Assembly (NCBI GenBank): GCA_951406725.2
Contig: OX597823.1
Coordinates: 2,294,001-2,358,000 of the forward strand
Source of the DNA: Octopus vulgaris
Lineage: Eukaryota
Reading direction: 5' to 3'
Length of the DNA: 64,000 nt
The stretch's first letter is position 1. Every line of letters starts with the position of its first letter. The translations under genes and the position numbers were made by a program. This document shows positions 10,059 through 64,000 of this stretch, piece after piece. The notes below the pieces were generated by a model. It was not told the DNA's origin. It saw only the letters and a program-made list of their open reading frames with translations, and did no database searches.

Positions 10059-12350
10059 AAACAATTATGCTTTTTTATTTAAAAGTGTTTCGCTTTCTCT
10101 CTTTCTTATTTCACTTCACACTTCCACCACCCTCCCTCACCCACCCTTTCTCCTTCGTCTTTCAGAGTTTAAAGCCAAACAGCTCCGATGTCACGTCTAC
10201 TTTGTCTTTAGATTTGTGTCGGTTTCTACAAAGAAACGCCGTAGTTAATTTAACATTACGCACCTGCCATATGACGTCTCATGCTTGTCATGTGATCACA
10301 CACACACACAAACGCACTCACGTACACACAGTCACAGACACATACAAGTACTGTACTGAGTCGCATATGTTTCTGTACGAATTCATCATGATGCCAGCCT
10401 CCATGTCATGTTTCGTTATACATGTTTCGTTATACATGTGACGTTATACATGTGACGCCATAGATATGAGGTCACACGAAGTGAAGTATATGGATAATCC
10501 GTCGATTCCAGTTGTTCTATGAATTAAACTGTTTGAATTAGCGATTAACTGGTTGAGTAAACTACATACATGTGCACCCTCAACTTAATAATTCCCAGGT
10601 GGGGTCGGTGAGTGACAAGGTTGGCCTTTTGAATTACAGGTTAAGTGCAAGCGATGGGCTTCCGCACAACTCCGTCCCCGACCCCAGGGATTTAGCTAAA
10701 ACACGAGCTCAGTTATTCTTCACAGTGGAATTGAAACGGAGACTTTAAGTGAACTTCTTAACCCCTCGCTCAAAACGCACGCATGCTCAGTGATGTTGTG
10801 TCGCTTCATACTGATACATATTTACCCACGTGAAGTCAAGTTAGCGATGTAATACAGTGTTGTTTTATACCTGTTTCTTTATTACCCACAAGGGGCTAAG
10901 CATAGAAGGGACAAACAAGGACAGACAAGCGGATTAAGTCGATTACATCGACCCCAGTGCATAACTGGTACTTAATTTATCGACCCCGAAAGGATGAAAG
11001 GCAAAGTCGACCACGGTGGAATTTGAACTCAGAATGTAAAGACAGACGAAATACTGCTAAGCATTTCGCCCGGCGAGCTAACCACTCTGCCAGCCCCTCG
11101 CCGCCTTGTCTTGTTATATACCTCTAGAATGCTGTCACATATCCGTCATGCGATGCCACTCACATTTACTGTATGACATCACACGCATACACTTACATCG
11201 CAATGTCATATACCTACACTCACGTAACACTGACCTGTTACGTCAAACACGCACACACTCACCACTACACACAAGCAACTGGGATGTGACTTCGCCCATT
11301 TCATACGTCTTTGATAGAATGATACAATGATAACTATCATGCTGACATCACGCAATTATGTGACGTCACACATCAACACTTGCGCACGCACGCACACACG
11401 CGTGTGTGACATCATTGCAAGCCACGAGAAAATCCTTTACCTGGTCTCATATCAAACGCCACTATTTTAGAAATGAATAAGGAAATTCTAGAAACCCAGT
11501 GTCTTGAATAAAAGGCAGGATAGTCACGGCTGGAATGCAGTTGATCATAAGGCTGCCAGCTTGAATAGAAATGACCTGTACTGAAAGTCAAAAATCAATA
11601 TATCGATGCTATTTACCATTGTTATGGTCCGTGGCTATGGTCATTCCTGGTTGACTGGTTCCCAAATAGTTAGGAAAAAGAACATCCCACGTAATAATAG
11701 CTTAGTCCATCATTGACTCAGGTCCTCCAAACCAAGACCAGAAGGTTGCCTTCAAAACGTGTATCCATAATTTTTTTTTAATCATTTAAATTTTAACACA
11801 AGTCTAATTGCGGCAAAACAACTGCCTCCGACTCTCACTGACATACATACTTTTGACATCGTATGAGCTCACTCAATGAAATTAGCATTTCTACATTATC
11901 ATCATATCCTTTTATCTTCTATTTTATAGATTCTCATTTTTTCCATTAATTATTATTTAGATTATAAGACTATAATTAATCGAACACCCTTTCAGTCACA
12001 ACACTTTTCCTATTTATTGAACACCTCTAAGCCTTTTCTTCTCACTGTTATGGAGTTATACAGTGGGTATTAATATATATATGTGTCATATCATGGTTTC
12101 GGTTCCCAGACCTGACGACGTGTTGTGTTCTTGAGAAAGATATTTCATTTCATATTGCTTCAGTTCACCCAACAGTAAAATTGTAAACGGATAACCCTTT
12201 GACAGACTAGCTTTATGATTAGGGGTAATGTTAGCAAGGTCACCGAGCCAGCAGGGTGGCATCAGACAAATGCTAAAACGATGCAAAACGCATTGTCGCC
12301 AGCGATGTATAAAAACATCCAATAGTCTGATCGATACCATGATATCAAAT

Positions 12351-18362: not shown

Positions 18363-18579
18363 GTAAGTATAAATTGATTTTCACTTTTTCGTTACTCTTA
18401 CACACAAACGTAAATATCTGTTTCTTTATTAGCCACAAGGGTCTAAACACAGAGGGGACAGACAAGGACAGACAAAGGGATTAACTCAATTATATCGACC
18501 CCAGTGCGTAACTGGTACTTAATTCATCGACCCCGAAAGGATGAAAGGCAAAGTCGACCTCGGCGGAGTTACACACATA

Positions 18580-18622
<43 letters not shown>

Positions 18623-21299
18623 TGAACTGTTACTTTCTCAAATGCAGCACGAAGCTTTGTCAGTGAAGAGGTCGCGGTCTGAAAGCGACGGAAATATTTT
18701 GACAAATTAAATTTAAATGTTGAAGTGAATCCAAAGGTTTTTGTGTGTTTCTGAAATAAACACCTTCCAAGCTGCAATTGTCACTTGTTTTGTTTTCACG
18801 AAGCTTTAGACATGTCAGAAAAACGGTTTAATTTCTAATGCTTTCATTATTATCTGTTATTGTGTTTGAGTTTATTTTTACCGGGAAATCGCACGTTTTT
18901 CCCGGTTTTCTGACTTTTTTCTTTCTTTTTTTAAACTTTGTAACTCAACACTTTTAAGATTTAGACTTTGAAGACGAAACTAAGTAAATACGGGAAACTG
19001 AGTTTCAAATGCTGTAATGTCTTCCGAAATATTTGTATCGTAGTGCATGAATTGTTTTAAAAAATACCAATTTTCATACAAAATCTTGAGTTAAACGACA
19101 AAATATGTTTTAATCCGTTTTTTTTTTTGTTCAGATTTCTGGCTTCCGAAGTAAGGGAGATCACTGGTATTGGTTCAGTGATATTTTAGTAGAGTGACCT
19201 CCCCTGGCTTGTCCCCTGAACTGGTTTTCTTCAAGGCGGCAAGCTGGCAGAAACGTTAGCACGCCGGGCGAAATGCTTAGCAGTATTTCGTCTGCCGCTA
19301 CGTTCTGAGTTCAAATTCCGCCGAGGTCGACTTTGCCTTTCATTCTTTCGGCGGTCTGTGTTTAGCCCTTTGTGGGTAATAAAAGAAATAGGTTTTCTTA
19401 ACGTCAATCGGTGGAGCATAGAACAAACTTTTGCGGTATTTGTCCCAGCCCTACATTTTCAGTTCTAACCCCGCCGAGTGCAGCTTTGCCTTTCAACCTT
19501 ACGCAGTCGAAATACTGCAGACACAACAAAAACTGGGATCAATGATTTCGTTTAATCCCACCCTCCAATTTTCTAATTTAATTTTGTAAAACTAATGAGC
19601 ATTATCGAAATAAAAGACATTTTCATTTCCACCCCCCACTTCCCTCTAAATCAGAAAACATGACAAGACTTCCGCCCGTCCCCCACAAACCACACTTTTT
19701 TTCGACCCCCCCCCCCTTTTGTGGGTTACGGGAAATACGAATCTGCTAATAAATTGACAAAAATCGACATTTTTAAATTACCACCCCACCTTCATTTTTT
19801 ACTTTTTCAGGGATTTTTTTCCCGTAAATGTGCGGAAAAATACGGAGATTATGAATCTGAAGAAAAATTCCAAAAATCTTTGTAAAAAAATTTTTTAAGT
19901 ATTTTTTTTTTTTTTTTTGTTATACTAAACATGCAGAAAAATACAGACCGGGACCTTCATATTCGAAAACGGGAGTTTTGGGCCAAAAAATTATTTTTTT
20001 TAACAAACAAATTTGGGAGAAAATTGTGGGGGGTGGGCAGAAGTCTTTCCGAAAGCATTATTTGTATTCAGTGTATGTTAATTTTATAGTTTGTGTTTAT
20101 ATGGCATTTTTGTTTATTCTAAATGTGATATTATTCGCCAAGAAATTCGTTGGATATATTCTAAATGTGTTCAATTCTAGGGGAAACGGCAATGTAGTAA
20201 AATGCTTTCTCTCTCTCCAAAGGACTTCTCTCATCCATGCAACACCAACTTGCTCAGATTTGATTTTAACAGAATTCTACAAAAACCCTTCAGTTTTGAA
20301 AATGAGGCGCTTTTCTAGGATTCTTGGAATTAGCATGAAGGGCGGAATTTTGCTTCAATCATCTCTTGTACCCCTTCATAATTTTTCTTATTTTTGGGAA
20401 TTTTCAAAAAATTTTTGCGATTTTGTGTTCTACACACGAGAATTCATACGATTATGAAAAAAAAAAAAATTTTAACCTCACCCCCTCCCATAAATAAATC
20501 CTAAATATTCCACTCTTTTTGGAATGTTTTTCTTTTAATCAATTTAAAATACAGAGAGTTCAAACTTTTTGCTTAAATACAAGCAAAAGACCATTAAATG
20601 TGTTTATGGAGGGAAAAATATTGAGAAACATCAATACATATCAGTGGCAAAGAAGCAAGGAAGGTATCAGGTGGTCGTGAGGTGTGCTAAAAACAACAGC
20701 TAAATCAGACTTAAATCACACGAAAAATAAGTGATTGATTTCTGCATAATCGTGTTAATTACCATGTGTAAGAACATGAATTTGCTAACATTTTCTGAAA
20801 ATTAAAAAAAAAAATTGTTTTTGACAGCTATGAGGGATGCTTAAACCAAAAGTCTTCTCATGAAGGAACTACTAAACCAAAGGAGTCAGTCTTAGAACAA
20901 TTTAATGCATTGATTAGAGACAGAGAAAGACTTAAATAAACAGTAAAGCTTAGTATGATATGTCTAAGGTATGTACAGAGGTGTATTCAACCACCCTGTA
21001 TTTCTCTACAAATTTGAGGTTTTATTTCAATCTAAGGAATTGTTTATTGAACCACATTTATTCCAGTTTAGTCTGTAACCATATTTGGTCAATTTGACAA
21101 ACTGAAATTTCTCTCTAATCCCGCCACATTCATCATCATTGGACAGTTTGAGTGGGAGCAGTAGGCAAAGGGCTGTGCCAGGCCCCAGTCTCATTTGACT
21201 TGGTTTCTACAGCTCGATGCCCTTCTTAACCCTAACCACTCCAAGAGTGTAATGGGTGTCTTTTACATGTCACTGGCATGGGCCACAATTCAATTTTAC

Positions 21300-30811: not shown

Positions 30812-31883
30812 ACTGCTTTATAAAAGTCTAGAAACTGTTGCTGTAACATTGCTTTCAAATGTTGACACAAGGCCAGCAACTTTGCGGAGGGGACAGGCAT
30901 GAGTCGATTCCATTGATGACCCCCCCCACTGCTCAGTTGGTACTTACTTTATCAATCCCAAAAGAATGAAAAGCAAAGTCGACCTCAGCAGAATCTGAAT
31001 TCAGAATGTAGAGACAGACAATGACTACAGATGGCAGAGTTGTTGCCATGCCGATATGCTAACGACTCTGCCATTTCAATTCCTTTGTTTGGTGCCACAT
31101 ACTACTGTGTAGAATGGTTAGCTTCTCATCTTTTAACTCTTTCATTGCCATATTTCAATTGAGGTAATCATTCCAGTTTATTTTGGAAACGATGAAGAAT
31201 TCAGTATAAGAGCATTCCTGTTGCTATAGTAACAGGATGAGATGAAGCAAAGCGAATCTACTTCCCACTTTTGCTCACACTAGAAAAACTAGTGTTACCA
31301 GAGAGAGCAACACGTGAACGAGGGTCCCCTCAGTATGCTGCATTAAGTATGAAACATGTTCATACACAAAAAGAAAGCCCCCTAAACCCTAGCTTGAGTA
31401 CCTGAGGACACATGGAGTAAAAGCCTAGCAAGAGAGAAACACAAAGGGAAGAGACAGACATGGCCTCTATGGATGGCAAATATGTATTTTATCACTTTCT
31501 TCTAACGTCTGGGTTGGATGGTTTTGCAGGATTCAATGTGTCCAAGAACTGCACTGATTGACAGTCTCTGCTTTGGCGTGGAGTAGATGTACACAGCAGC
31601 ATGGTTGGATGGTTTGAGAAGTTGACCTTGCAGCCATGCGGTTTCAGGTTCAGTCCCACTCTACAACATCTTGGACAATTGTCTTCTACTGTCAAAAGAA
31701 ATTGCTTCAGTAGCATGTGTTCATCTGACCCATGCTGGCATGAAAAAATTGATGTAAGAAACAAACTAATTACCTAAGTTTCATTTGTTTTCCTATACTC
31801 ATGTAGATGGATATGGTCTGTTCCAGCAGAAAGGGTCATCACATGTCAATGTCCTTCGTCACTTGTTATTGTTGCATTATCAT

Positions 31884-39469: not shown

Positions 39470-39760
39470 TTAATAACATTGTCTGCATATTGGAACTACT
39501 TTATTCTGTACGTGTCCTTCCCTATCTTTATACCTTGCCCTAGCAAATGCTGAGTTGTAATATGCCTCTTCATCAGCAAACAGCCTGGATACTCTGTTAG
39601 ATACACTTCTTGGGGATACTTCACAACATATACTCTTGGTTGTTGGATCCCAACTCACATAGTTCAAGCTTTCATTTTGCAAATGGAACGGTTCGAACTT
39701 TTCTTCTTTGAGGTTAAATTTTGCATCAAGGAATCTTACAACTCTATGATTTCTATTTCC
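39470..39760 (-). mobile_element. Penelope-like RT C-terminal/thumb remnant
   Basis: VRFLDAKFNLKEEKFEPF...LNYVS...PRSVSNRVSRLFADEE resembles the PLE FLD/thumb region. Confidence 0.55.
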
Positions 39761-39923
39761 AGTCCACAGTTTTTAAAGAATTTAATAAGTGTTTTTCTTA
39801 CATCTTCCTATTTCTACATTACTACTTCTAATACAGTGTAAATAATGCATCATCTCTATATAATCCTCCTCCTAAGTTCAGGTACCAACATTCTATTATT
39901 GATGATAAGTATATTCCTACTGT

Positions 39924-41727: not shown

Positions 41728-42411
41728 TTATTACCTCTGCCTTCGTTAAGGTGGAGGTATTGTTTTCAGTCCTGGTCATTTGTTTGTTTGTCTGTGGACA
41801 AGATATCTCAAGAAATGCTGGATAATTCAGATGAAACTTTCAGGGATGTTTGGTCTCATGACTGGCATGAACTGATTAGATTTTGGGATCGATCCGGTAC
41901 CAGACAAGGATTCTGGATTATTTCTTATATTTACTTTACATGAAGTATTACAATCTTATGTTGACTTTCAAGTCTTTCTCTGATTATCTCCCTTATATAT
42001 TATACATACATATTAACACTTTACAGTATACTTATATATATATACATACACCTATACATCAATCTAAAAGAACGGGAATATTAGATGAAGGCCGGAATTT
42101 AAGAGAAGAGAAAACCAAAAGGTCTCATGCTGTTCCTTTAAAAATTCCTGATACTGCCACAACTAGATTTGAGGCTGCCAGAACTACACTTGATCAGTCA
42201 GCAGAGACCATTCATGAAACTTGTGGGGCTGTCCAAAGGTGGGCAAAAAGCCATTTCTGGCAGAGCCATCAATGTACCATCCAAGCTGCAGTCCGTTGTG
42301 TCATCGTTACCAAGACTACCAAATTCATCCGATGTCATCGCATTGAAACTCAAATGGAGGTTGGCATATAAAGGATGTTATATGCACGAATATGTGCATC
42401 CGAAAAAGTGA
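41728..42411 (+). mobile_element. Helitron/Helentron remnants: HINE-like head and a fragment of the domain preceding Rep
   Basis: Palindrome ACCTCTGCCTT-cgtt-AAGGTGGAGGT followed by GTTT/GTCT repeats. ORF 42169-42411 PFMKLVGLSKGGQKAISGRAINVP...LPR...LKLKWRLAYK...EYVHPKK resembles the DUF6570-type Helitron domain. Confidence 0.65.
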
Positions 42412-42559
42412 ATGGAGGCACTTTGCTGGCCTCAGAAAAATAATCCCTTGTACAAGGACATCAAGGTCTGTCATGAATGGGAAAACCAGTGCAGGGAGAG
42501 AAAGCTGAGGCACAGTCAATGAATTGTGCACAAGAAAGGGCAGTTTGGATAACAGTGGG

Positions 42560-42880
42560 TGAGGGATATCTATGTAGGGCAAGCCATGATGGGGTGGCCA
42601 GAATTGTCGGGCTTGTGGATCTCGGGAAGGAAGTAAATAGTGAGAGCATGTGGGGTACAGACAACAAGGTTGGAGATGGTGGGAGGAGGAAATAATTGGT
42701 GCAAGATACAATCTGTTGGTAGTTTGACATGGGTCTGGGGGGGGGGGGGCAGATGGTGATAGAAGGAGGTGTCTTGAAATTGGTGGAGCACTTTAGCCTT
42801 ATAGAAGTCAGCAGACCATACCACTACAGCTCCACCTTTGTCAACCGGTTTGAGGGTAATGTCTTGACAGTGTTGGAGAC
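42560..42880 (-). mobile_element. Penelope-like RT N-terminal remnant
   Basis: ITLKPVDKGGAVVVW...YFLPEIHKPDNSGHPI matches the PLE motifs KxADKG and YxLPKIHK..P.RPI. Confidence 0.75.
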
Positions 42881-45786
42881 ATAACACAAAGAAGAACTTG
42901 TTCTCTTCTTCATAACACTACTCCCCTCCCTAGACCTTTGTTGACCCAAGAAAAGTACCTGACATTTATAAATATCCAAAACTTAAACCTAAATACATTA
43001 ATCATACAGGAAATAATCCTTAAACTTCTGGGGTCTCTTCCTTTACCACTTCTGAGGAGATTCTTGGTCCCCCACTGGTGTCTTTTGATTCTCTGCTTGT
43101 TTCATTTCTTCCTCTCTGTGACTGTCTTGCTCTTTCACTTCTTCTTCATTCTCCCCAGTACCTTCATCAAAAGAGGGTTCCCAGCTGAACTGGCCAGGCC
43201 CACAGACAGTTCACATACACAATCTTAGCACAAGACCTCTCGACCCTCAAATCCAGTGTGTCACATTGAACAGGTGATGCATCACAGTGTACAGTTCCTC
43301 CAATGGACTCTGCAGCTTTGGCACCTGTTCCTTTTTCCTCTGGGCATTAAGACAGCCACACTTCATCTCCCTCCTTGAAGTTGACCTCACTGGCCCTGGC
43401 ATCATGCTGACATTTCAGTACTTTGTCCCTGTCAGTCTCTCTTGCAGATGTTTCATATTGCTATTCGAATGTTAATTTATTGATGCATTTGGGCAAACCT
43501 CTGTCTCTATTATCAGACAATTTCAAAACTGTTTAAAAAAAGCTCAAAACTCTGCAAAAAATTCGCTACAAATTCTTTGTGGTTCAAAACGTTGCTTTTT
43601 ACTCAACCTGATATTATTTCTGCTACTTTATTGCTGTCTCTTGCATTCTGGAGTTCAGATAGTCACCTAGTATTATGTGCCACTATAATTTGTGCTAAAT
43701 TGTCGCTTGTGGAGACAGCCAATCTGATATTGTGTCTATTAAAGGTTTTATGGTAATTGTTAAATGTCAGAAAACAGTTCCCTACAGCAGCAAAAAATTG
43801 CCCCAGATTATAAGAAGTTACTTGTGTACCAAATACTGCGTTATGTAATCTTCAACTTACCAACTCTATTTTGGATTTCTCTATTCTTATTAAGGGTCAA
43901 CCAGAGCAATTCTTTCTACTGCGGTGTTTGGGATCCTAGTTTACATCATCCATACTCAGCATATTCCTATTTTGGCCTCTTCTTGCTTATTCTATTGTTT
44001 TCGCTATGGTGTTTCACTGCATTTTCTTTACCATGTTCGTCATTGATAGGTTTAAGGTGGTCAGCTGGCAGAATCGTTAGCGGACTGGGCAAAATGCTTA
44101 GCGGCATTTCATCCGTCTTTGCATTCTGAGTTCAAATTCTGTCAGGATTGACTTTGCCTTTCATCCCCTCAAGGTCGATAAAATATGTACCAGTCATGTA
44201 TTGGTGTTGATGCAATTGACTTTTCTCCTCCCCTCTAATTTGTGGCTTTGTACCAAAATTTGAAGCCAATAATTATTATGTAAAAAGCACCATTCAAGCG
44301 TGGCTGTTGTCAGTGCCGCCTGACTGACCCTCATGCCAGTGGCACATAAAAAGCCCCACTACATTCTCGGAGTGGTTGGCATTAGGAAGGGCATCCAGCT
44401 GTAGAAACTTTGCCAGATCAAATTGGAGCCTGGTGCCCTCAGTCAAACCGTCCAACCCATGCCAGCATGGAAAGTGGACGTTAAACAACAACGATGATGA
44501 TAGGTTATTTCTTTGCAGTTAATTCCCCTGTTACTATTTCCAGCCCCTTTCTCTTGGTCTTGCTATACTCTTACAGAGGTTTTGAGTTCATTTTTTCCCT
44601 GGCTTATTAATTATTTTGTGGATTCCATTGATGTTTGTATTCATCCCAGTTTGATTCCCACGGCTCCATACCAATCCGTCCTTACAGCTTGCTTCTTCTA
44701 ATACATTGCTATAATATTTTTCATTTCTTCTAAAGATCTCCTTATTCACTGATAATCTAGAGATGTGGGTCGAAATGTTCTTGATAGTTAGAAGCTTTCT
44801 TCCCAACTAAATGGTTCCAGGTTCAGTCCCACTGTGTGGCTCATTGGGCAAGTGTCTTCATCTATAGCCTTGTGAGTGGATTTGGTAGACAGGCACAGGA
44901 AGACGCTCATCATGTGTGTGTGTGTGTGTGTGCCTTCCTTTGTGTCTGTGTTTGTCCCCCACCACTGCTTGACAACTGATGTTGGTTTGTTTACATCCCT
45001 GTAACTTAGCAGTTCAGCATAAGAGACCAATAGAATAAGTACCAGGCTCTTCAAAAACTGAGAACTGGGGTTGATTCCTTCCAGGCAGTGCCCCAGCATG
45101 GTCACAGTCTAAAGATAGAAACAAGTAAAACATAAAACAGATTCCATTATGGTTTTGGGATGATTTCTGTTAAAACTGGATGTTGTCATTGAGTTTATGG
45201 AATGGTTGGTATACACCCATAATCAAATCTAAGGTAACACTGAAGAATTTAACCTTAGTGTGCCATCTTTTAGGGAATGGGTTAAGCCTAAACCCTTGAA
45301 GAACCTAAATAACTCTTCTCTGTACTTTTTCTAGTTTAACATTGTTGTGTTTATGTAATGTGAATAGAGGAATATACAATGTTTATGTAATGTGAATAGA
45401 GAGCCACCCCTATACAAAATCTTCCCCCTCCCCCCATTCGCAGAAATATCCTACTTATACAGAATAGGGTTTATATCCCTCCAAGGTCGGTTACCTGAGC
45501 TGAATTGCTAAATGCCATGCTGATGTCAAACATACTTGGTCTGTCCTTTCTGACCCATTTTCTCTCCAATTCAATAATAGATTTTCTAGCAGTTAATATA
45601 TCTTACTTCCTCCTTAGAGAGATTGGAATTTTTTTTATCTGTGTGTGTGTGTGTGTGTGCTTCATTGTTGTTATCATTCCACCACCACCACCACCACCAC
45701 CCTCTCTTTCAATTCCTTTTTTATTTTTGTAGAAATGCCAAACTTCTTTTTGTCTTCTTTCTGACCTTTACATCTTCCTCCTCCTC

Positions 45787-47560: not shown

Positions 47561-47924
47561 TCACTTGTAAACAAACATGGTGGTGGAAGTTGTGACATCA
47601 TCAGAACTTACAATGATGAAAGGGCCCCGTGTCCTGAATGTAGGACACGGGCAATCTTGTCCCCCCCCCCCACTCACCACGATTATCTGTTTTTTTGTTT
47701 TCTGTATAACAGTTCCACTTCTATAATAAATCTCAAAACAAGATGTAAACAGTAACCGCTCGACAACGTAAAGTATACTAGCCATCTCAATATGGCTAAC
47801 CACAAAGGGTGGGCGTTACTGTAGCTTTTGGCCCCAAGAGATCATCGTCTCCAGCTGGCTTTAGGCACACTTTCTGTGCCCTTATGGTATTTGCAAAGGG
47901 AGGTCATCCCCTCTCGCAAACCTA

Positions 47925-47986
47925 AGCGATACTCACGGACTGCAGTTTCAAGGTAATTTGCCTCTTGTCAACATACGGCAATCACC
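47925..47986 (-). ncRNA. Type I hammerhead ribozyme, U3:A8 core variant (downstream of the Tx1 ORF2)
   Basis: Minus strand: GGUGAU-ugccgu-AUG-UUGACAA-GAGG-caaauua-CCUU-GAAA-CUGCAG-UC^-CGU-gagu-AUCGCU. Stem I has an internal loop, stem II has 4 pairs, stem III is the palindrome ACUGCAGU, and the cleavage triplet is GUC. Confidence 0.75.
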
Positions 47987-48226
47987 GGTTTACGATTATA
48001 AAATCAGTACATAGAAGAACAATACAGGACATACAAAAAACAGTTAAGTGGTTCGTTTAAAAATTTCCACAATATATGGATTATTCATTATACAAAAAAC
48101 TGTATTTAAATTGTCCTTTGCATTGACTAATATAACATTACATTAGATTGAAATCTTACCGATATATTTTAAACCCCGGCAACCAATAAGGCCCCGCAGC
48201 TTTCCTTTCCTCTTCTCCATCCTTAG

Positions 48227-51200
48227 TTAAACTGGGTTTCTGACACCCACCTTTTTCGCCACTTCCTTCCATCTTTTTTCATACACACCTCGTGGTAAGG
48301 TCTTCTTTTCCAGCCCCATTTTGCTCCTCAGATGATATCTGAAGTAAGTGAGCAAGCCGGGGCCTGAGACAAAGGATCCTATTGCGACTCCTTCCATTCT
48401 TGTACGCCACATGCATTCTTTTACTACTGCAACCGTGCAGTGAAAACATGCCTCACCTTCCTTCGAGAGTCCAGTTGGCGGTATCATCTTAATCATAGAC
48501 TCAGCCGACAGCTGTACTCGTCCCAGATGCGATAACACGTGTTCTGCGTAACTTATCAAGTCTGACAACTGCCGACAGTGTACAAAAGCGTGCTGGACGG
48601 TTTCATCGTCCAACCCGCATCTTGGACATGTCGGTGGCACTGAAATTCCGTGCCGCGATAACTTCTCGCGAACAGGTAAAGCATTCCTATAACACTGCCA
48701 GGCCAGGGATTTTTGGAAATTATCCAAATACCCCGTCCCGAAAGTCTTTTTAAACAGGTTGGTAAGCTGGTCCTCGTCGAACCCCAGAGCCCCTCCTAGG
48801 ACGTCGTCGTTCTTTGCCTCGACCAGCCTGCTATAAAATACCGAGGTGGTATTTCCGCAGCCGGCCTTGCCCGCCTTGTGGATCAGCGTGAGTGCCTGTC
48901 GACACTCCTTTTGCCATAAAGTCAGATTCCGTCTTTTGATGCAACCGGGTTTAAAATTCACTAAGGAAGCCGGTCTCGGGAAAAATTCCCCTGCCAGCGG
49001 ACTCCACACCTTATCACCCTCCAGGTGGTGCCAGAGATGCTTCAGCCTCAACGCATGCCTGCGCATCATCAACCAAGGCATTCCTAACCCACCCTTTAAC
49101 GGTTCCTGGCAGCAAACGGAGCGCCTCACAAGTGGCTTTCCTCCCTTCCACAAAAAGCAGAAAAGGATTCGCTCCAACTTGCTAAGCCATGAATCGGGCA
49201 AGGGACAACGGTCAGGCGGTAAGTGATTACAGATGCAATGAACATCTGTACCACCTCCGCCCTTCCTTTCAAGGACAGAAACCTTCCGGACCAGGTCCGT
49301 ACTATGGCCTCCACCTTGTCCGTCACCTCACTCCAATTCCTCTCCGTTTGGGAGTCTGACCCAAACCAAACTCCTAGCAACTTAACAGGACCATCTGTCC
49401 AGTGTCCCACGACACTGGACGATATTGACTTGCTCCTCCAGGTGCCGAGGCGTAAGCCAATCGACTTGTCCTTGTTAACTTGTGCTCCTGCCACCACCTC
49501 GTATCCTCTGATAGCATCTTCTACACAAGGTAGCTGAGCCTCATTGGACATGATGAGGGTGACGTCATCCGCATAAGCAGAAACCGTCCTCCCGCCTCCG
49601 ATCTCATCCGGGTTACTTCCCAGCCTCTATAACTTTTGCAGCAATGGCTCGAGAGCCAACACGTACAAAAGTGGTGACAAGGGGCACCCTTGACGAACTG
49701 AACATTCGATCGAAAATGGTTCCGTTAGGTAACTGTTTATCTGGACGGTGGACTTGATGCTGCTATACATAGTGGAGATCCACCCGCGAAATTCAGGGCC
49801 CAGTCCAGCCGCTTCGAGGACCGTCGCCAGGTACTTATGGTCTACCCTATCGAACGCTTTACTTTGGTCTAAATGGACCATTACCCCGCCCTTACCCACC
49901 CTATCTAAGGTGTAGCGTATAAGGTGAAGATTGTCCTGGATCGACCTGCCTGGAATTGCACATGTCTGTGCTTTCCCTACAAGTTTCTCCACGACAGTCG
50001 TCAACCGTTTTGCCAACACCTTGGCCAAAATCTTTAACTCTACATTAAGTAGAGTTATGGGCCTGTAATTATTAATGTTATCCCCCTTACTCGGGTCTTT
50101 CTGGATTAGCGTCACCACTCCCTGGCTTACAGAACTGGGAATTCTCCCGTTCTGCTGCCAGTTCGCGTAGACGCCTGCCAGTATTCCTCCGAACAAGTCC
50201 GGCATACTTTGATAAAACTCGTAGGGTAGACCATCCAACCCCGGCGCATCCGGCCAGTACCCCCTCTATCTCCGTGGGAGTGATCGCTCTTTCACAGCAC
50301 TCCACCTCACGCCCCGAGGGCCGCGGTCCGCCGGCTAGGAAGTCCCTTCCCCGAACGCGCGGGCGAAATGCTGGTGAAGAAACTTTTGCATCTCCTCCTG
50401 TCCATAGATCTTGTGTCCCTGTTCGTCAGTTAAAGACTTGATTGAAGCTTTGTTACCTCTCTGACTCTCCACTCGACGGGCCCATCCGGCAACGTTAATA
50501 CCTTCTCGTTTCCCTGTGCGTTGCTTAGCTCTAACTCTGCAACCTTCGTGTTTGGAGTTAAGGTGACGGTACAATACCGTCCTTGCCGCCATCACTCCGG
50601 ATGCAGAGCCAGATTCCATTGCCTCGTTTAGATTCTTAACTAAATCGTCCTCTATCCTAGACCTATCTAACCTTAGCTGATTGCTAAATCTAATGGACTC
50701 TGAATGAATGGCTCCTTTGAGGGAGTGCCACCATCTATTGTTAATGATGGTGCCACACAATGCCCTCTGTACTAACACCTTAATCCGGGTACGGAAGTCT
50801 TCATAATTCAAAATAGACTTGTTCAGCTTCCAGTACCTGGGTCCCTGTCTATGACACTTATCTAATTGCACCCTACAAGTCACAAATTTGTGATCTGTGT
50901 AAGGCACAATGTGAAACTGTGGACAACTAAACGTATCCTTATCTCTTTTCCTAATGAATATCCTATCTATATACGATCTGCGTGAGCCGTCGTTGTTACT
51001 CCACGTCCACTGTGGAACGCTGGGCTCATCCAGTCGATAACGGTCTACTAGATTAAAGCTCTCTAGTAGACCCTTGAGGCTAGGGTTCCCCTTCCTATTG
51101 GTTGAGCCAACACTGTCGAACCGCGCTTCAAGGACAGTGTTAAAGTCCCCTACTAAGACTACCGTTTTCGACGTCACTAAAAAGTGCTCCAGATTCCGAA

Positions 51201-51558
51201 AAAAACCCGACTGCCTACACTCATTCGGAACGTAGACAGCTACCAACCTGAAGGACTGTTTACTTACATGGGTCACATCCAGAACGACCAACCTGCCTTC
51301 TGGGTCCAGAAAGACAGTACTTACCTGCAAGTCCAAGCTCTTCCTGATAAGGACTTCCACGCCCCTTCCTCCTCCTTGGCTAGGAGAAATAAATTTCTCA
51401 AAACCATTTAGAAGAGGCGAGAACGTTTGGGCCCCGTTCATCTTGGACTCGGTTACAATAGCTACATCCACTCCGTGTGTCGTGAGGTCGTTCAGGAGAC
51501 AAATTTGTTTCCATTTCGACCCCATTCCACGCACATTCACACAACCCAGCTTTGCCAT
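48227..51558 (-). pseudogene. Tx1-like ORF2 (AP endonuclease, reverse transcriptase, zinc finger) split by several frameshifts
   Basis: Consecutive pieces 50335-51558, 49627-50238, 49126-49551 and 48227-49201 in canonical domain order. Indels may be real decay or assembly error. Confidence 0.9.
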
Positions 51559-51711
51559 TGTCGGAGAGAGAAAAAAAAAAAACTTACGGTTGGGACAGGG
51601 AGCATGACAGTTTAAATCTGCATGCTTCCCCTTCTTCCTCCCTTGAGGTCGTAGCTGCAGGGCTCTTAACCGGCGTTGCCATCGGGCTCTGGGTAGGTGT
51701 GGTTGCCGGGG

Positions 51712-52996
51712 TTATAGTAAGTTTGCCCTCCAGTATAACAACCTCCTGATAAGGTTATTTTTTAAATGTTCTTGGAGTGTTTTTTCCTTCCACTCGTCTT
51801 CCTTTATTTTTGCAAAACGAGTGGTTGACTTAGTGTCTGCAGACTTACTGAATAATTTCAGTTTTGAAAATTTAAAATACTTGAACACTCTATCGTTCCT
51901 CTCGTCGAATGCTACAATCTTTTCATTTTTTTTAATCAATTTTTTCCAATCTTGTTTTATGGGGAGGGGCTTGGCGAACTGTGTTCCAATGAATACAGTG
52001 CCGTGGGGGTAGGGCTGGGGAATTTGTTTTGTATGTATCTCTGCGGTGTTTGCTGATTTTTTCTTTGTTTGCGGAGGGGAGTCCAGGGTATTTTCTTTTT
52101 TTCTTTTGTGTGTCACCTGTGTAAATTCCATTTGTTCATTTTTATCTTCCGTTTCAATTCCCTTCCTTGTCGCAGTCTTAGGGTCTTTTTCTGTGTTTGA
52201 AGCACTTTGAGGAGGGGCTTCGCTGTTTTTCTTTTTTTTTTATGCAGTTCGAGCGAACGTGACCCTTTTCACCACATTTGAAACACCTAGGTCTGCGCCC
52301 CTCCACTGACACTCTCATTGTAATTCCCTCCTCAATAAATGCCCTATCGGGTAAGTTTTCTAGCACATTATTTTCTGCTTGAACGAGGAGTTTGAGCGCT
52401 TGTCCCTTCCAGTTTACCTCCTCTTTCCTTTTCATCTGCAGAATTGAGACTTTCTGCTCTATGTCGTGCAGAACCGCTGCTGCTACCCACATCATATATC
52501 CTCTTGGAATGTCTTCCACATATAGTTTCGCAGTTCTTTTGCCCATATAGGTAGGTAGTAACATGATGTCCTCACTTTTTAAGGTCATTGATGAAATCTC
52601 TCTTGCCACATCAGCCGAGTTGAAATGTGCTTCGACGGTATCGCTGCGGGCACCTCGACCGACATAGCGAATTTTGCTCCACACCAGGGTCAAGCACTTC
52701 TCTACTATTTCGTTCTTCACGTCCATTATTTTTTTCTCTTTGTTACTGTAAACCTTGTATACTACTGTCTTGGCCTTTATTTCCTGTAATATCACTTGCG
52801 GCGTTACCAGTTTTATTTCGTTGCCTTCCTTTTTGACCAAGTTCCAGTATTCGAACAACTGTTCTATTTTGAATTCCACTTCCGTTACGGTTCCGCCCAT
52901 TGCGGCCGAAAAAGACTGTTTTCTAACCTCGATATCCTTCTGTTCGCCTTTTCCCATCACGGGAAAGTCGCTCCTCGACGCCAAGTCGAACTCCAT
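51712..52996 (-). pseudogene. Tx1-like ORF1 (gag-like CCHC zinc knuckle), interrupted
   Basis: ORF pieces 52178-52996 and 51712-52131; CX2CX4HX4C motif. Confidence 0.85.
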
Positions 52997-53322
52997 TTCT
53001 CAAATTATGAGAACCAATTTTTCAAAAAAAATTACCCCGAAGGTAATAACAATGTTTATACACAGAATTTTCAGCCCCGTAGGGCGAAAATTACTGTCAC
53101 ACAACGGACAACTGTTCAATTCACGAGCAAACACAAACAACGACGAACAAAAAACAAACTCACTCAACAAAATAGGCAGCTAACTTCTCAATATGCAGAT
53201 GAAAGAGGGGTCCCTAGACGAGTGACAAACCACCAGGTCGCGATGGAAGAGAAAGCTGCCTTGCAAATATATAAGTTTTTCTAGTAACGTCTGCCACTGA
53301 TTTCGAAAAACTGACAGTAAGC

Positions 53323-53725
53323 ATTATTAAATCTCAGAATGAGATTGAAACAGTAATCGCTCGATAATGTAAAGTATAGAAGCCATTTTAACATGGCTAA
53401 CCACATAGGGGAGGGGGTGTTACTGTAGCTTTATAGCCCCAAGAGATCGTCGTCTCCAGTTGGCTTTAGACACCATTTCAGTGCCCTTGAAGTATTTGCG
53501 AAGGGAGGCCATCCCTTCCTTGCAAGCCTGAGTGATACACTCGGACTAGTTTCGGGATTTTTGTCCCTTGTCAACAGGCGGTAACCACCAGGAGACAACG
53601 ATCTCTTAGGGCTATAAAGCTATAGTAACACCCCCTCCCCTATGTGGTTAGCCATGTTAAGATGGCTTCTATACTTTACATTATCAAGCGATTACTGTTT
53701 CAATCTCATTCTGAGATTTAATAAT
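53323..53725. repeat. ~135-bp inverted repeat (53323-53457 / 53591-53725) enclosing a hammerhead-bearing spacer
   Basis: The arms are reverse complements with about 5 transition differences (ATTATTAAATCTCAGAATGAG... / ...CTCATTCTGAGATTTAATAAT). Confidence 0.9.
53527..53592 (-). ncRNA. Type I hammerhead ribozyme, U3:A8 core variant (upstream of the Tx1 ORF1)
   Basis: Minus strand: CCUG-GUGGU-uaccgc-CUG-UUGACAA-GGGA-caaaaa-UCCC-GAAA-CUAG-UC^-CGA-gugu-AUCAC-u-CAGG. Stem III is the palindrome ACUAGU. Stem II covaries with the other copy. Proximal stem I has one C-A mismatch. Confidence 0.75.
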
Positions 53726-57168: not shown

Positions 57169-59340
57169 TGCTGTATTTGCCAGCACACAACACCAAACTG
57201 AACATTAATTTTATACCAGTGCTTTTCTTTTTAAATCAATGCTACATTTTGATCACAGACATTGTTCATTTCAACAGGATCATTTCTAAGGTTGGGAGCC
57301 AACATAGCCTCATTGAAATTAGGTTACTTACTGGTCCCCCCCTCTCTCTCTCTCATTAGTATAGTATAGATTACCGTATCTAATGGTAATACAAACTAAA
57401 TATTTCAAAACCATGATTATTTTTAATCTCTGCTCAATCTCCCATTGGTGGTATGCACGTATCAGATTTTTTTGTAGGTTCTTTTTTTTTTGGGGGGGGG
57501 GGCTGCATCCAGTCACTCTCTCCAGTATTTTGTTGAGTGCTGTGGTTTTTGCAGCGTATTATTAAAGCCCTAAAATGCTGCCCAAACGTCCTACCCCTTT
57601 TAAGGCTTCTGGCAGTGAACCTAAGTGCTAGAAAAAGATTATGACACTCCATAAGAAGGGACAACTGCTGAATATGTTCTGGGAAAGTAAAGTTATGCTG
57701 CAGTAGGTCACTATTATGTTGTCAACGAAAGCACCATACACTACATAAAGAAGAAGAAGGTGGCGATCAGTACTACCGTAGCAGTAAGTTTCTGTGAAAG
57801 TGCCAAAAGAGATAACGACAGTGAGAAACAAGCACCTTCTCAGGATGGAATCTACCTTGGCATTGTGGATCAGTGACTGCAAGAAGAAAAACATCCCCTT
57901 GAGTGGTAACATCATCTGCGAGAAAGCGTGGAAATTATAGCAGCAGTTTGAGAGAGGAGACGGAGCAGAAGGCACCAAAGAATCGCATCCAGGACCATTG
58001 ACAGCACCAGAGCCCGAAGATTTTCAAACCAGCAAAGGATGGTTTGACTGTTCCTAGAAACAGTTTAAAATAAAGTGTGTTTCCTTGCATGGAGAGACAG
58101 CATCAGCCGACAGAGAAGCCACCAAAATGTACTTCAAGGACAAGGGATACAAGCCAAAACAGGTTTTCAATATGGCTGAGACTGGTTTGTTCTGGAAGAA
58201 GACGCCTTCCAGAACATGCATCAGGAAGGACAAAGCCAGAGCCCCAGGATTTAAGGCAGAGAAGGACAGAGTGATGCTGATTATGTATGGCAATGCTGCT
58301 GGCTTCATGATAAAACCAAGACTCATCTACAAGTCTGCAAACCCAAGGGCCTTCAAAAATAAGAATAAAAACCTGTTACCTGTCTACTGGATGCACAACC
58401 CCGAAGGCCTGGATTATCAAAAGTCTAACCTTGAATTGGTTCCACCAATACTTCATCCCTCAAGCCAAGGAATACCTCCAAACTGTTTGCATGGAATTCA
58501 AGGTGCTGTTTGTTATGGACAATGCTGGTGGTCACTCTTTGGATTTGAATCACGAGGGAGTCCAAGTCAAGATCCTCCCTGCCAACACCACATCCCTCAT
58601 CCAGCCTATGGATCAAGGTATGATCCATGCTTTCAAGGCACTTTACACTCAGAACTCTCTCCTTGTGGATGCAATGGATTCAGACAAGAAATTCAAGTTA
58701 AAGGAGTACTGGCATAACTTCATGATCACAGCCTGCCTGTCAGTCATCCACACTGCTCTTAAAGACATGAAAAAGAAACCCTCATCATATGCTAGAAGGT
58801 GTGGCCAGAGTGTGTCCAGGACTACGAGGGTTTCTCACCTGAAGATATTCAGCACAAGACTGTCAACAATGCGGTGAAACTGTCAAGGGTACTTGGGGAA
58901 GAAGTTTTTGACATTATGCAAGATTTTTTGGAGTTATCAAAGTCTGCCAGCGAAGAGTAGAAGGAAGCACCAATTCCAGCAGAAAAGAAGGATGAGGTGG
59001 GCTTAGCAATTGAACATCTGTCTGCCCTTTTAAGGACAGCAAAGGAATTGGAAGGGAAAGCAGAAGCATGGGATCCCTATATGGTTCAGTCTCTCCAGTT
59101 TCAAAATGCCATTGATGCTGCCATGCAGACATATAAAACCTCTCCTCACCACCATGAAGAAACGATGACTGCAACTTCCCATCACAATGTTCCTGAAACC
59201 CATCGAGAAAGCCTTGCATGAAGATACGACGACATCCCCTGAAACACCTGAAGAAGAGGCATCACCTGAAGAGCTTTAAATTTTCTTTGCTGCGAGGTCA
59301 TTACCTTCATTATTTTCATCATCATCGTCTTAAATCAATA
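56957..59340 (+). mobile_element. Tigger/pogo transposon, decayed
   Basis: TA then the CAGTGTACCTCTGCTTATTTGCGG terminus; ATG at 57575. Motifs SKGWF, VFNMAETGLFWKK, MDNAGGH and LPANTTSLIQPMDQG. Many stops and frameshifts. Confidence 0.88.
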
Positions 59341-62600: not shown

Positions 62601-63344
62601 TGAGTGAGCGAGCAGAGCATGCCATCAAAGTGACACTGGGGTAAAATATACGAAGCCCCATATACCCATCATGACTGCCCGTCTGATAAGGGTACACCAG
62701 GCACATGCATCACAACCATATGTGCGCGACATGGTGATCTCATATCAAGATAAACAGCACATGACCTTGAAGGTTGGACCCAGTTAGAATTTTCTTCAGG
62801 TTGAGTAGCCCATCCCGCTCAAAAGGTCCCTGAATAAGGGTTGTTTAAGGATGTTGAACGAACTGCCCATGCTTCCAGTGGTGAATTATTCAAATCCCAA
62901 ACAATCCCTCTCAACACATGGCTAAGATGCTCCCCCACTACTTCTGCTCGTGATCAGAGATGCACATATCGTCAGCCACTAAGGGACATGCTCAACTGGT
63001 TAAGGTCAAACAATTGACAAGCAAATATGTGGTATTGAGCAGAATATTTGCTGTAGCCCATCTTTTATACCAAGACAAAATAATGTACATGATAACACTT
63101 CCAATCAGTTAAGATCAGAAGCCATTATTATTGATTGATTGATTCTAGTTTCAGCTCATGAGCTGTGGCCATGCTGATCATTATTATTATTACTATTAAT
63201 ACTATTCTTCTTCTTCATCTTATTATTATTATTAATATTATTATTATTATTATTATTATCATTATCACTATTATTATCATTATCAATATTATTATTATTC
63301 ATATTATTATTATTATTATTATCATTATCATTGATCTCTTGCGG

Positions 63345-64000
63345 CACCGTCTTTGATCACTGTCGGCACCCTCTTTGATCTCTTTCGGCACCATCTTTGA
63401 TATATGTCGGCACCCACTTTGATCTCTGTCGACAGGCTCTTTGATCTCTTTCGGCACCATCTTTGATATATGTCGGCACCCTCTTTGATCTCTGTCGGCA
63501 CTCCTCTTTAATCTCGGTCGGCTCGCTCTTCAATCTCTGTCGACACCCTCTTCGATATCTGTCGGCAACCCCTTTGATCTCTGTCGGCACCCTCTTTGAT
63601 CTCTGTCGGCGCCCACTTTGATCTTTGTCGGCACTCCTCATTGATCTCTGTCGGCACGCTCTTAGATATGTGGAATGTCAGGAATGACTGGAATGTCTGG
63701 AATATCTGTCGGCACCCTCTTTGATCTCTGTCGGCACTCCTCTTTAATCTCTCGGCACGATCTTTGATCTCTGTCGGCACTCCACTTTAATCTATGTCGA
63801 CTCGCTATTTGATCTCTATCGGCACCCTCTTTGATCTGTCGGCACATTCTATGATCTCTGTCGGGTCCTCTTTGATCTCTGTCGGCACTCCTCTTTAATC
63901 TCTGTCGGCTCGCTCTTTGATCTCTGTCGGCACCCTCTTTGATCTCTGTCTGCCCCCACTTTGACCTCTGTCGGTACTCCTCTTTAATATCTGTCGGCAG
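63345..64000. repeat. ~21-bp minisatellite array (CCTCTTTGATCTCTGTCGGCA), running off the window end
   Basis: About 30 diverged units, interrupted by a short (GGAATGTCT)n tract at ~63670-63705. Confidence 0.92.

Follow-up and report, generated by a model that had tools for sequence, protein, structure and literature searches.

Two U3:A8 hammerhead motifs bracketing a LINE in Octopus vulgaris belong to a likely non-LTR retrozyme family with several amplified core types

Two hammerhead motifs in a 64,000-nucleotide stretch of the Octopus vulgaris genome (contig OX597823.1, positions 2,294,001 to 2,358,000; the whole stretch is referred to as the window) each stand at the head of a repeat unit of ~355 bp, which is, judging from its sequence, likely to be a non-LTR retrozyme. 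In this genome, amplified subfamilies of the repeat exist for each of the cores U3:A8, U3.G8, C3:G8 and U4C, but not for C3:A8. The main context, missed by the earlier reading of the window from its letters alone (the sequence-only reading), is a LINE inserted site-specifically between the two copies.

A type I hammerhead descriptor with Y3/R8 permitted, run over the 64-kb window, returned exactly two matches, designated copies A and B (Table 1), confirming on the minus strand the UUGACAA cores that had been reported for both. In 300 dinucleotide shuffles of the window, the same descriptor gave a mean of 0.017 matches (five single matches, 0/300 shuffles with two); the TTGACAA heptamer by itself was not enriched in the window (15 matches versus 19 expected). 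Both matches have the three-way junction of a type I hammerhead, open at stem I, and UUGACAA is a published variant of the core. Rfam scans detected no hammerhead, either in the window at the gathering score or in the 38-58 kb region at E<=10, as expected because of the core variant and the short stem III. A tRNA search of the window found none. Among other features of the window are a broken DDE_1 transposase at 58058-58877 (+) (Pfam E 4e-17), presumably Tigger/pogo-like, a SINE-like repeat (1270-1862, 10867-11091, 18414-18638 and 30924-31019) present as three in tandem with 184-bp spacing and also dispersed, and a 22-bp minisatellite at 63282-63965; the output of the repeat finder over the whole window was dominated by microsatellites.

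Table 1. Features of the window around the two hammerhead motifs (positions are those of the window)
Feature	Position	Strand	Basis or remark
Repeat copy A, subfamily A	47723..47996	-	BLAST against repeat units; extends between the target motif and unit position ~268
Hammerhead copy A, type I	47925..47986	-	UUGACAA core 47965-47971; descriptor match and sequence reading
LINE 3' target-site motif ATCGTAAACCGGTG	47983..47996	-	overlaps the first bases of distal stem I
L1/Tx1-like LINE, ~5.2 kb, without poly(A)	47997..53230	-	domains and genome comparison
LINE ORF2 piece, zf-RVT	48227-49327	-	Pfam zf-RVT
LINE ORF2 piece	49126-49626	-	
LINE ORF2 piece, RT	49627-50265	-	Pfam RVT_1
LINE ORF2 piece, APE endonuclease	50335-51711	-	Pfam Exo_endo_phos
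LINE ORF1	52178-52999	-	Pfam zf-CCHC, E 1.4e-4
LINE 5' target-site motif ATCGCGACCTGGTG	53231..53244	-	four mismatches to the 3' motif
Repeat copy B, subfamily B	53236..53592	-	one whole 355-bp unit, ~80% identical to A
Promoter-like ATCAGTG	53295..53301	-	57 bp upstream of the target; U2 snRNA genes of the genome are preceded by this motif at equal spacing
Hammerhead copy B, type I	53530..53589	-	UUGACAA core 53568-53574; descriptor match and sequence reading
Inverted, 5'-truncated arm of copy B	53585..53725	+	unit positions 128-268; Penelope-type 5' inversion

In copy A, stem II (GAGG/CCUU) is followed by GAAAC-UGCA-GUC with the palindromic loop 3 UGCA, and in copy B stem II (GGGA/UCCC) is followed by GAAAC-UA-GUC with the loop 3 UA; GAAAC and GUC are indeed unchanged between these two copies. 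Self-cleavage of both motifs is predicted 3' of H17, namely C17 at position 47938 in copy A and C17 at position 53544 in copy B. The covariation that had been claimed for their stems held up in part only. Stem II shows a compensatory change between the subfamilies, but CCUU is private to copy A, whose subfamily has CCUC. The differences in distal stem I are one-sided G-U swaps, with 0/5 pairs changed on both sides, and proximal stem I carries a mismatch in each copy (G.A in copy A, C.A in copy B) that had gone unmentioned. The computed minimum-energy folds of copies A and B were not hammerheads (z -1.0 and -0.8), while a family-typical A copy is predicted to fold as a hammerhead at minimum energy (z -2.4). 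Both window copies carry further C-to-T changes, and we infer that they are decaying offspring of source copies.

The repeat unit has a G+C content of 0.43-0.44 and is non-coding, its longest ATG frames being 35 and 82 aa; it combines the features of a non-LTR retrozyme, that is, a non-coding unit of 150-450 bp, low G+C and a type I hammerhead. Copy A is 93% identical by BLAST to a unit of a ten-unit U3:A8 tandem array of near-identical units on contig C4 at 13.62 Mb, and dimers were also found. It is this array and the dimers, not the window copies themselves, that provide tandem units with complete hammerheads. As a circular monomer, the unit is predicted to fold at -105.8 kcal/mol (z -5.6 versus 100 shuffles). 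A 22-nt motif from the repeat body had 1,854 exact matches in the genome and 0 in the backwards control; this counts matches rather than copies, and the B-type subfamilies, with an additional base at this place, escape the motif. The repeat is also present in contigs labelled as three other organisms, where no match listed spans the joint of LINE and repeat with 31 letters to either side.

Around the first 100 of the 1,854 body-motif matches, we delimited 92 segments in 86 loci, two LINE-flanking matches being left out of this set. Most copies are single and truncated, with partial tandems occurring, and 16/92 segments are longer than 300 bp. Their 3' ends fall at unit positions 200-229 (55/92) or 260-279 (34/92; together 89/92), their 5' ends are scattered, and inverted pairs mostly combine one end of each kind. 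The insertions have the geometry of Penelope elements, with fixed 3' ends at ~225 or ~270, variable 5' ends and 5' inversions; Penelope-like elements have been described with a 5'-truncated copy in inverted orientation and, at one end, a tail of 30-40 bp (10.1101/2021.04.23.441226).

This geometry fits mobilisation by a Penelope element; the one active Penelope-type family compared has no sequence homology to the repeat. It is young, with many identical 775-aa ORFs (L187, C1:37061000-37070999, and L159-L186) that comprise an RT, a CxxC linker and a GIY-YIG-like end, and it shows 1-kb direct repeats and a 5' inversion. Searched with the descriptor, 30 short loci and 4 long ones of this family gave no hammerhead, and no Penelope ORF linked to the repeat was found in the fetched loci. 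In the window itself, decayed Penelope-like RT remnants with a DKG-type motif and an FLD region were recognised by eye at 42325-42917 (-) and 39470-39772 (-); these had no Pfam match and no match in the fetched loci.

About 35 of the 92 segments continue across the predicted cut site, and their template was therefore circular or an uncut multimer. No pile-up of 5' truncations was found at the predicted cut in this set (2/92 within 3 nt, 6/92 within -8 to +4), so that no clear trace of cleavage is visible in the genome. The absence of such a pile-up also suits a rival account in which the hammerhead is a relic: Penelope proteins would copy uncut transcripts, promoter-driven or read-through, and U3:A8 would be an inherited accident in a core that drifts with whatever source copy happens to be active.

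The core was surveyed by exact genome matching with one pattern in which positions 3, 7 and 8 were left open; the backwards controls gave 0. The 787 matches comprise 335 U3:A8, 247 U3.G8, 192 C3:G8 and 13 of all other kinds including C3:A8, so that the 3:8 pair is Watson-Crick in 527/787, wobble in 247 and anything else in at most 13. These are counts of matches, in which inverted arms and arrays enter repeatedly, and each pattern misses some subfamilies. A pattern with C at position 4 (U4C) gave 136 further matches, mostly of the C3:G8 type. U3:A8, which had been called rare, is not so inside this genome, and the statement that CUGANGA searches miss it is borne out, as a strict search would catch only 192/923 matches here. 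In a sample of 55 copies unfiltered on core letters, chosen by body motif or LINE flank and undercounting the B types, 3:8 was C:G in 33, U:A in 16, U:G in 5 and C:A in 1, and U4C was present in 9/55. The 3:8 pair is kept in the family, and the genome counts by core type mark U3:A8 as a trait of subfamilies that is not a product of decay and not the only consensus.

The sequence-only reading had itself named the alternative that both UUGACAA cores are products of parallel decay from a CUGACGA consensus. CpG-type decay of this kind can draw on G8, part of a CpG whenever N7 is C, and on the other C-to-T changes of the two window copies. C3, however, is not in a CpG, the 335 exact U3:A8 matches are spread across several subfamilies, near-identical array units carry U3:A8, and U3:A8 also occurs with U7. 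The two window copies come from two different amplified U3:A8 subfamilies, and parallel decay, refuted by the subfamily counts, retains practically no probability.

The amplified lineages depart from the textbook core in further ways. All 18 C3:G8 copies carry C10.1.A11.1 instead of G-C, 18/21 U3.G8 copies carry GUU, and each subfamily sampled deviates somewhere from the textbook core. By median pairwise difference, U3.G8/GUU appears to be the youngest subfamily (0.047, n=11, versus 0.067-0.105 in the others, in small pooled groups). Since U3.G8, U4C, C10.1.A11.1 and GUU are all amplified, selection on the core is lax. These same variants, the 247 U3.G8 and 136 U4C matches included, and the apparent youth of a wobble subfamily are what a relic hammerhead would leave. 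Such a relic is harder to reconcile with C3:A8, which never amplified (at most 13/787 and 1/55), and with the other core positions, which in the 55 unfiltered copies are better conserved than the body (mean 0.95 versus 0.90). In a further, joint reading, slow ribozymes would themselves be selected: each amplified lineage sampled differs from the textbook in its core, by U3:A8, by U3.G8 (in most cases together with GUU) or, in C3:G8 copies, always by C10.1.A11.1 and sometimes U4C as well, and only such a detuned hammerhead would spare enough template, uncut or re-ligated, to be copied. Taken with an allelic series through a U.G intermediate and with trimming of the 3' ends of the LINE, a parasite of the repeat's promoter, by the hammerhead, which this reading includes, we find it rather doubtful.

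The helices have canonical sizes (6 bp plus a distal 5-6 bp in helix I, 4 bp in helix II, 2 bp in helix III), and across 39 aligned rows the structure is 94% paired. The 3:8 position is always pairable in these rows (UA 17, CG 12, UG 10), stem II pairs 2 and 4 are each changed on both sides in 15/39 rows, and 18/39 rows leave stem I pair 1.3:2.3 unpaired. The covariation score exceeded those of all 500 shuffles and all slid controls, a result that related, core-filtered rows alone could yield. Directly after the 6-bp helix I stands an unpaired U that is invariant, and in most rows the last base of loop 2 is A; these may form the known loop 1/loop 2 tertiary contact.

Loop 3 is palindromic in 89/94 copies, a set enriched for A and B, and takes six sequences (UGCA, UA, UAUA, CGCG, CG and CCGG). 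In silico, the short stem III is unfolded alone but pairs between two molecules at -6 to -15 kcal/mol. By analogy with animal type I hammerheads (PMC4209133), the palindromic loop 3 points to a dimeric fold. On an unrooted tree of 44 rows, computed from the 165 bases that come after the ribozyme, a single change accounts for C3:G8 (support 98/91) and three changes for U3.G8, with both wobble groups placed among U3:A8 rows. The swap between C:G and U:A, one change on the tree, is therefore one event, and the wobble lineages, as placed by their sequences, were amplified at least twice.

The single swap event and the unpaired 1.3:2.3 pair would both fit a loss of function, but a loop 3 kept palindromic through six sequences and compensation at two stem II pairs would not be expected of a relic. 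Weighing these together with the evidence from the core, we consider it improbable that the hammerhead is a relic. The proposal that the structure is under selection holds, as far as the aligned sequences tell, between source lineages, where selection is visible; it does not hold in the two damaged window copies.

The LINE between the copies has the domains of a Tx1-type element, a zinc knuckle in ORF1 and an APE endonuclease, RT and C-terminal zinc finger in ORF2; the L1/Tx1-like label is given by this domain layout, with no named Tx1 reference among the RT relatives returned. The nearest named relative of its RT is from Argonauta hians (67%) and the nearest solved structure is human LINE-1 ORF2p. 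The window LINE is 96-97% identical to 16 other full-length copies, and a whole ORF2 was present in 0/17 full-length copies.

The repeat follows 28/30 LINE 3' ends (the best 30 of 596 candidates, 40 scored, the window copy included) and precedes 29/30 LINE 5' ends (the best 30 of 183 candidates), tandem LINE copies being among the exceptions. A duplication of the 14-bp motif ATCGnnnnnnGGTG was seen in 16/16 other full-length copies, exact in 11, with one mismatch in four and with two in one. One target thus makes up more than 20% of the flanks and comes with a target-site duplication, the two marks by which we judged target specificity. The LINE inserts at ATCG with a 14-bp duplication, and an intact hammerhead remains behind its 3' end. 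The duplicated motif bears subfamily-specific letters on both sides of the LINE. Targets comprise 14 C3:G8, 10 U3:A8 and 3 U3.G8 repeats (n=27) and, as they span subfamilies, the flanks are target DNA and not cargo.

Several other loci show variations on this arrangement. L089 and L099 hold tandem LINE copies with a single target motif between them, and the 5' flank of L099 also has a sister LINE tail at the target motif. In L073, the target motif is present at the LINE 3' end and the repeat does not follow; a diverged relative of ORF1 (65% DNA identity) lies downstream of that end at L073:2770-3501. An internally deleted LINE of ~1.1 kb at L100:1487-2651 sits in a U3:A8 (U7) repeat and is flanked by a perfect 14-bp duplication.

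The two window hammerheads lie on either side of the LINE in its own orientation, the LINE lacks a poly(A), and in most copies an intact hammerhead lies 10 nt past its 3' end; one might accordingly assign the hammerheads to the LINE, where they would cut its RNA free at both ends, as the R2 ribozyme does at the 5' end. The flanks, however, differ in subfamily between loci and agree across each insertion, which marks them as target DNA, most 5' flanks are truncated and contain no upstream hammerhead, and the repeat is far more numerous than the LINE. We therefore regard LINE-owned hammerheads as very unlikely; trimming of read-through LINE RNA by the hammerhead at the 3' side alone may occur.

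The window locus differs from the 16 other full-length copies, being the only one with four mismatches in the duplication. Its 5' flank is B-type and its 3' flank A-type, and both outer ends lie at unit position ~268. The locus is likely a recombinant of two LINE insertions, which would be why the two window hammerheads differ; on this reading, the "two copies" of the sequence-only reading are two subfamilies joined by that event. No crossover point was found within the window LINE, where shared variants are scattered. A 5' co-transcript as the source of the mismatched flanks was rejected, as the window has no A-type sequence or duplication upstream of copy B.

Upstream of the LINE target, an ATYART[GC] motif was found at -57 to -60 in 17/17 repeat flanks. 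For comparison, 15 of the 48 U2 loci found in the genome were fetched, and the same motif was present at -57 to -61 in the 13/13 without an upstream LINE tail, the other 2/15 having a LINE-like tail directly at +1. From this resemblance, the transcription start of the repeat is predicted at 53244. In each of the subfamilies shown, ATTTGCA(A/T), which we take to be octamer-like, precedes the predicted start by ~20 bp (window 53260-53270, -). The LINE tail at +1 of U2 genes (L298, L305) belongs to a sister LINE and is similar, not identical, to the 3' end of the window LINE.

As an explanation of the whole, we favour as fairly likely a retrozyme with fixed U3:A8 subfamilies, copied by a Penelope-type protein and carrying slow, dimeric hammerheads. 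A U-snRNA-type promoter within the 3' portion of a unit would start transcription in the next, and the transcript would begin at ATCG, 10 nt before stem I of that unit. Two hammerheads would then pair via their palindromic stem III/loop 3 and cut slowly after GUC, as dimers, and cleavage would release a unit-length, highly paired RNA that circularises. The circle would be reverse-transcribed for more than one round by a Penelope-type protein, and selection on the source copies would demand only a pairable 3:8 and modest activity. The steps of this account that concern DNA structure are observed in the genome, and those on RNA we infer.

Non-LTR retrozymes are known from coral, mussel and axolotl (PMC7229834), and vertebrate ones have been described (bioRxiv 10.64898/2026.07.22.740005). 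The octopus repeat resembles the published ones in its type I hammerhead, its non-coding unit of 150-450 bp, its range from monomers to arrays, its short stem III with a palindromic loop and its highly paired predicted circle; the mussel unit measures 350-390 bp (PMC7229834), that of octopus ~355 bp. Axolotl family 2 is a further parallel, having a mismatch at the base of stem II. In contrast to published retrozymes, the octopus family has four amplified core types, and most of its copies are single and truncated. U3:A8, U3.G8 or U4C retrozymes, the promoter and a targeting LINE are absent from the available text of the retrozyme accounts compared.

That a family had been overlooked is correct insofar as the family is large and missed by Rfam, but a U3:A8 family recovered through a changed descriptor is already published: the Cercyon Penelope-like elements of Schistosoma mansoni have minimal U3-A8 hammerheads with ~1,300 matches after the change (PMC4209133). 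The two share the core swap, the Penelope context, predicted dimers and high variability of subfamilies. Cercyon hammerheads have a helix II of 7-8 bp, a helix I of 4-5 bp and almost no helix III, and they lie in the pLTRs of coding elements (PMC4209133), whereas the octopus motif has canonical helix sizes in a non-coding unit. With a helix II of 4 bp and no linked Penelope ORF found, the assignment as a Cercyon-type minimal pLTR hammerhead was rejected.

Natural U3/A8 covariation has been described in several ribozymes, and U3/A8 as "proven to be active in vitro" (PMC3088659). The earlier statement that U3:A8 is functional agrees with this, but activity depends on context: in a type III hammerhead the G:C swap alone rescued, and the other single and double mutants at 3:8 were low (PMC9901934). 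A U4C viroid variant stays infectious and a 10.1-11.1 mismatch is also known (PMC3088659). The variants in that source are rare single cases, those of octopus amplified subfamilies of one element, and the U3.G8 wobble class, present in octopus, is absent from its available text. Target-specific LINEs of the Tx1 clade include Tx1 in Tx1D, Keno in U2 genes, Tx1-Mar and Kibi/Koshi (PMC4494074). The octopus LINE is like them in its two ORFs with APE endonuclease, RT and zinc finger, in single-site insertion into a multicopy sequence with target duplication, and in the possible use of a target promoter; unlike the targets named there, its own is a hammerhead retrozyme at the predicted transcription start.

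In the literature consulted (partial coverage), we found neither an octopus retrozyme nor an amplified U3.G8 family, nor any LINE that targets a retrozyme, and the main text of a 2026 octopus repeat paper contains 0 occurrences of 'hammerhead' or 'ribozyme'. Repbase/Dfam entries and paper supplements may already hold these elements.

Natural U3:A8, including at the family level, is already known; what the octopus family contributes is the amplified allelic series of four core types, together with the retrozyme-targeting LINE. The family is a natural test series of likely weakened ribozymes. With four core types of more than a hundred matches each in one genome, it offers a test of how much cleavage a retrozyme needs. 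The wobble state is among the amplified types, though it is near-inactive in mutagenesis of another hammerhead (PMC9901934), and the family thus also offers a test of how nature crosses a compensatory change in a catalytic core. The LINE at the predicted start site of the repeat ties a target-specific retrotransposon to a ribozyme element.
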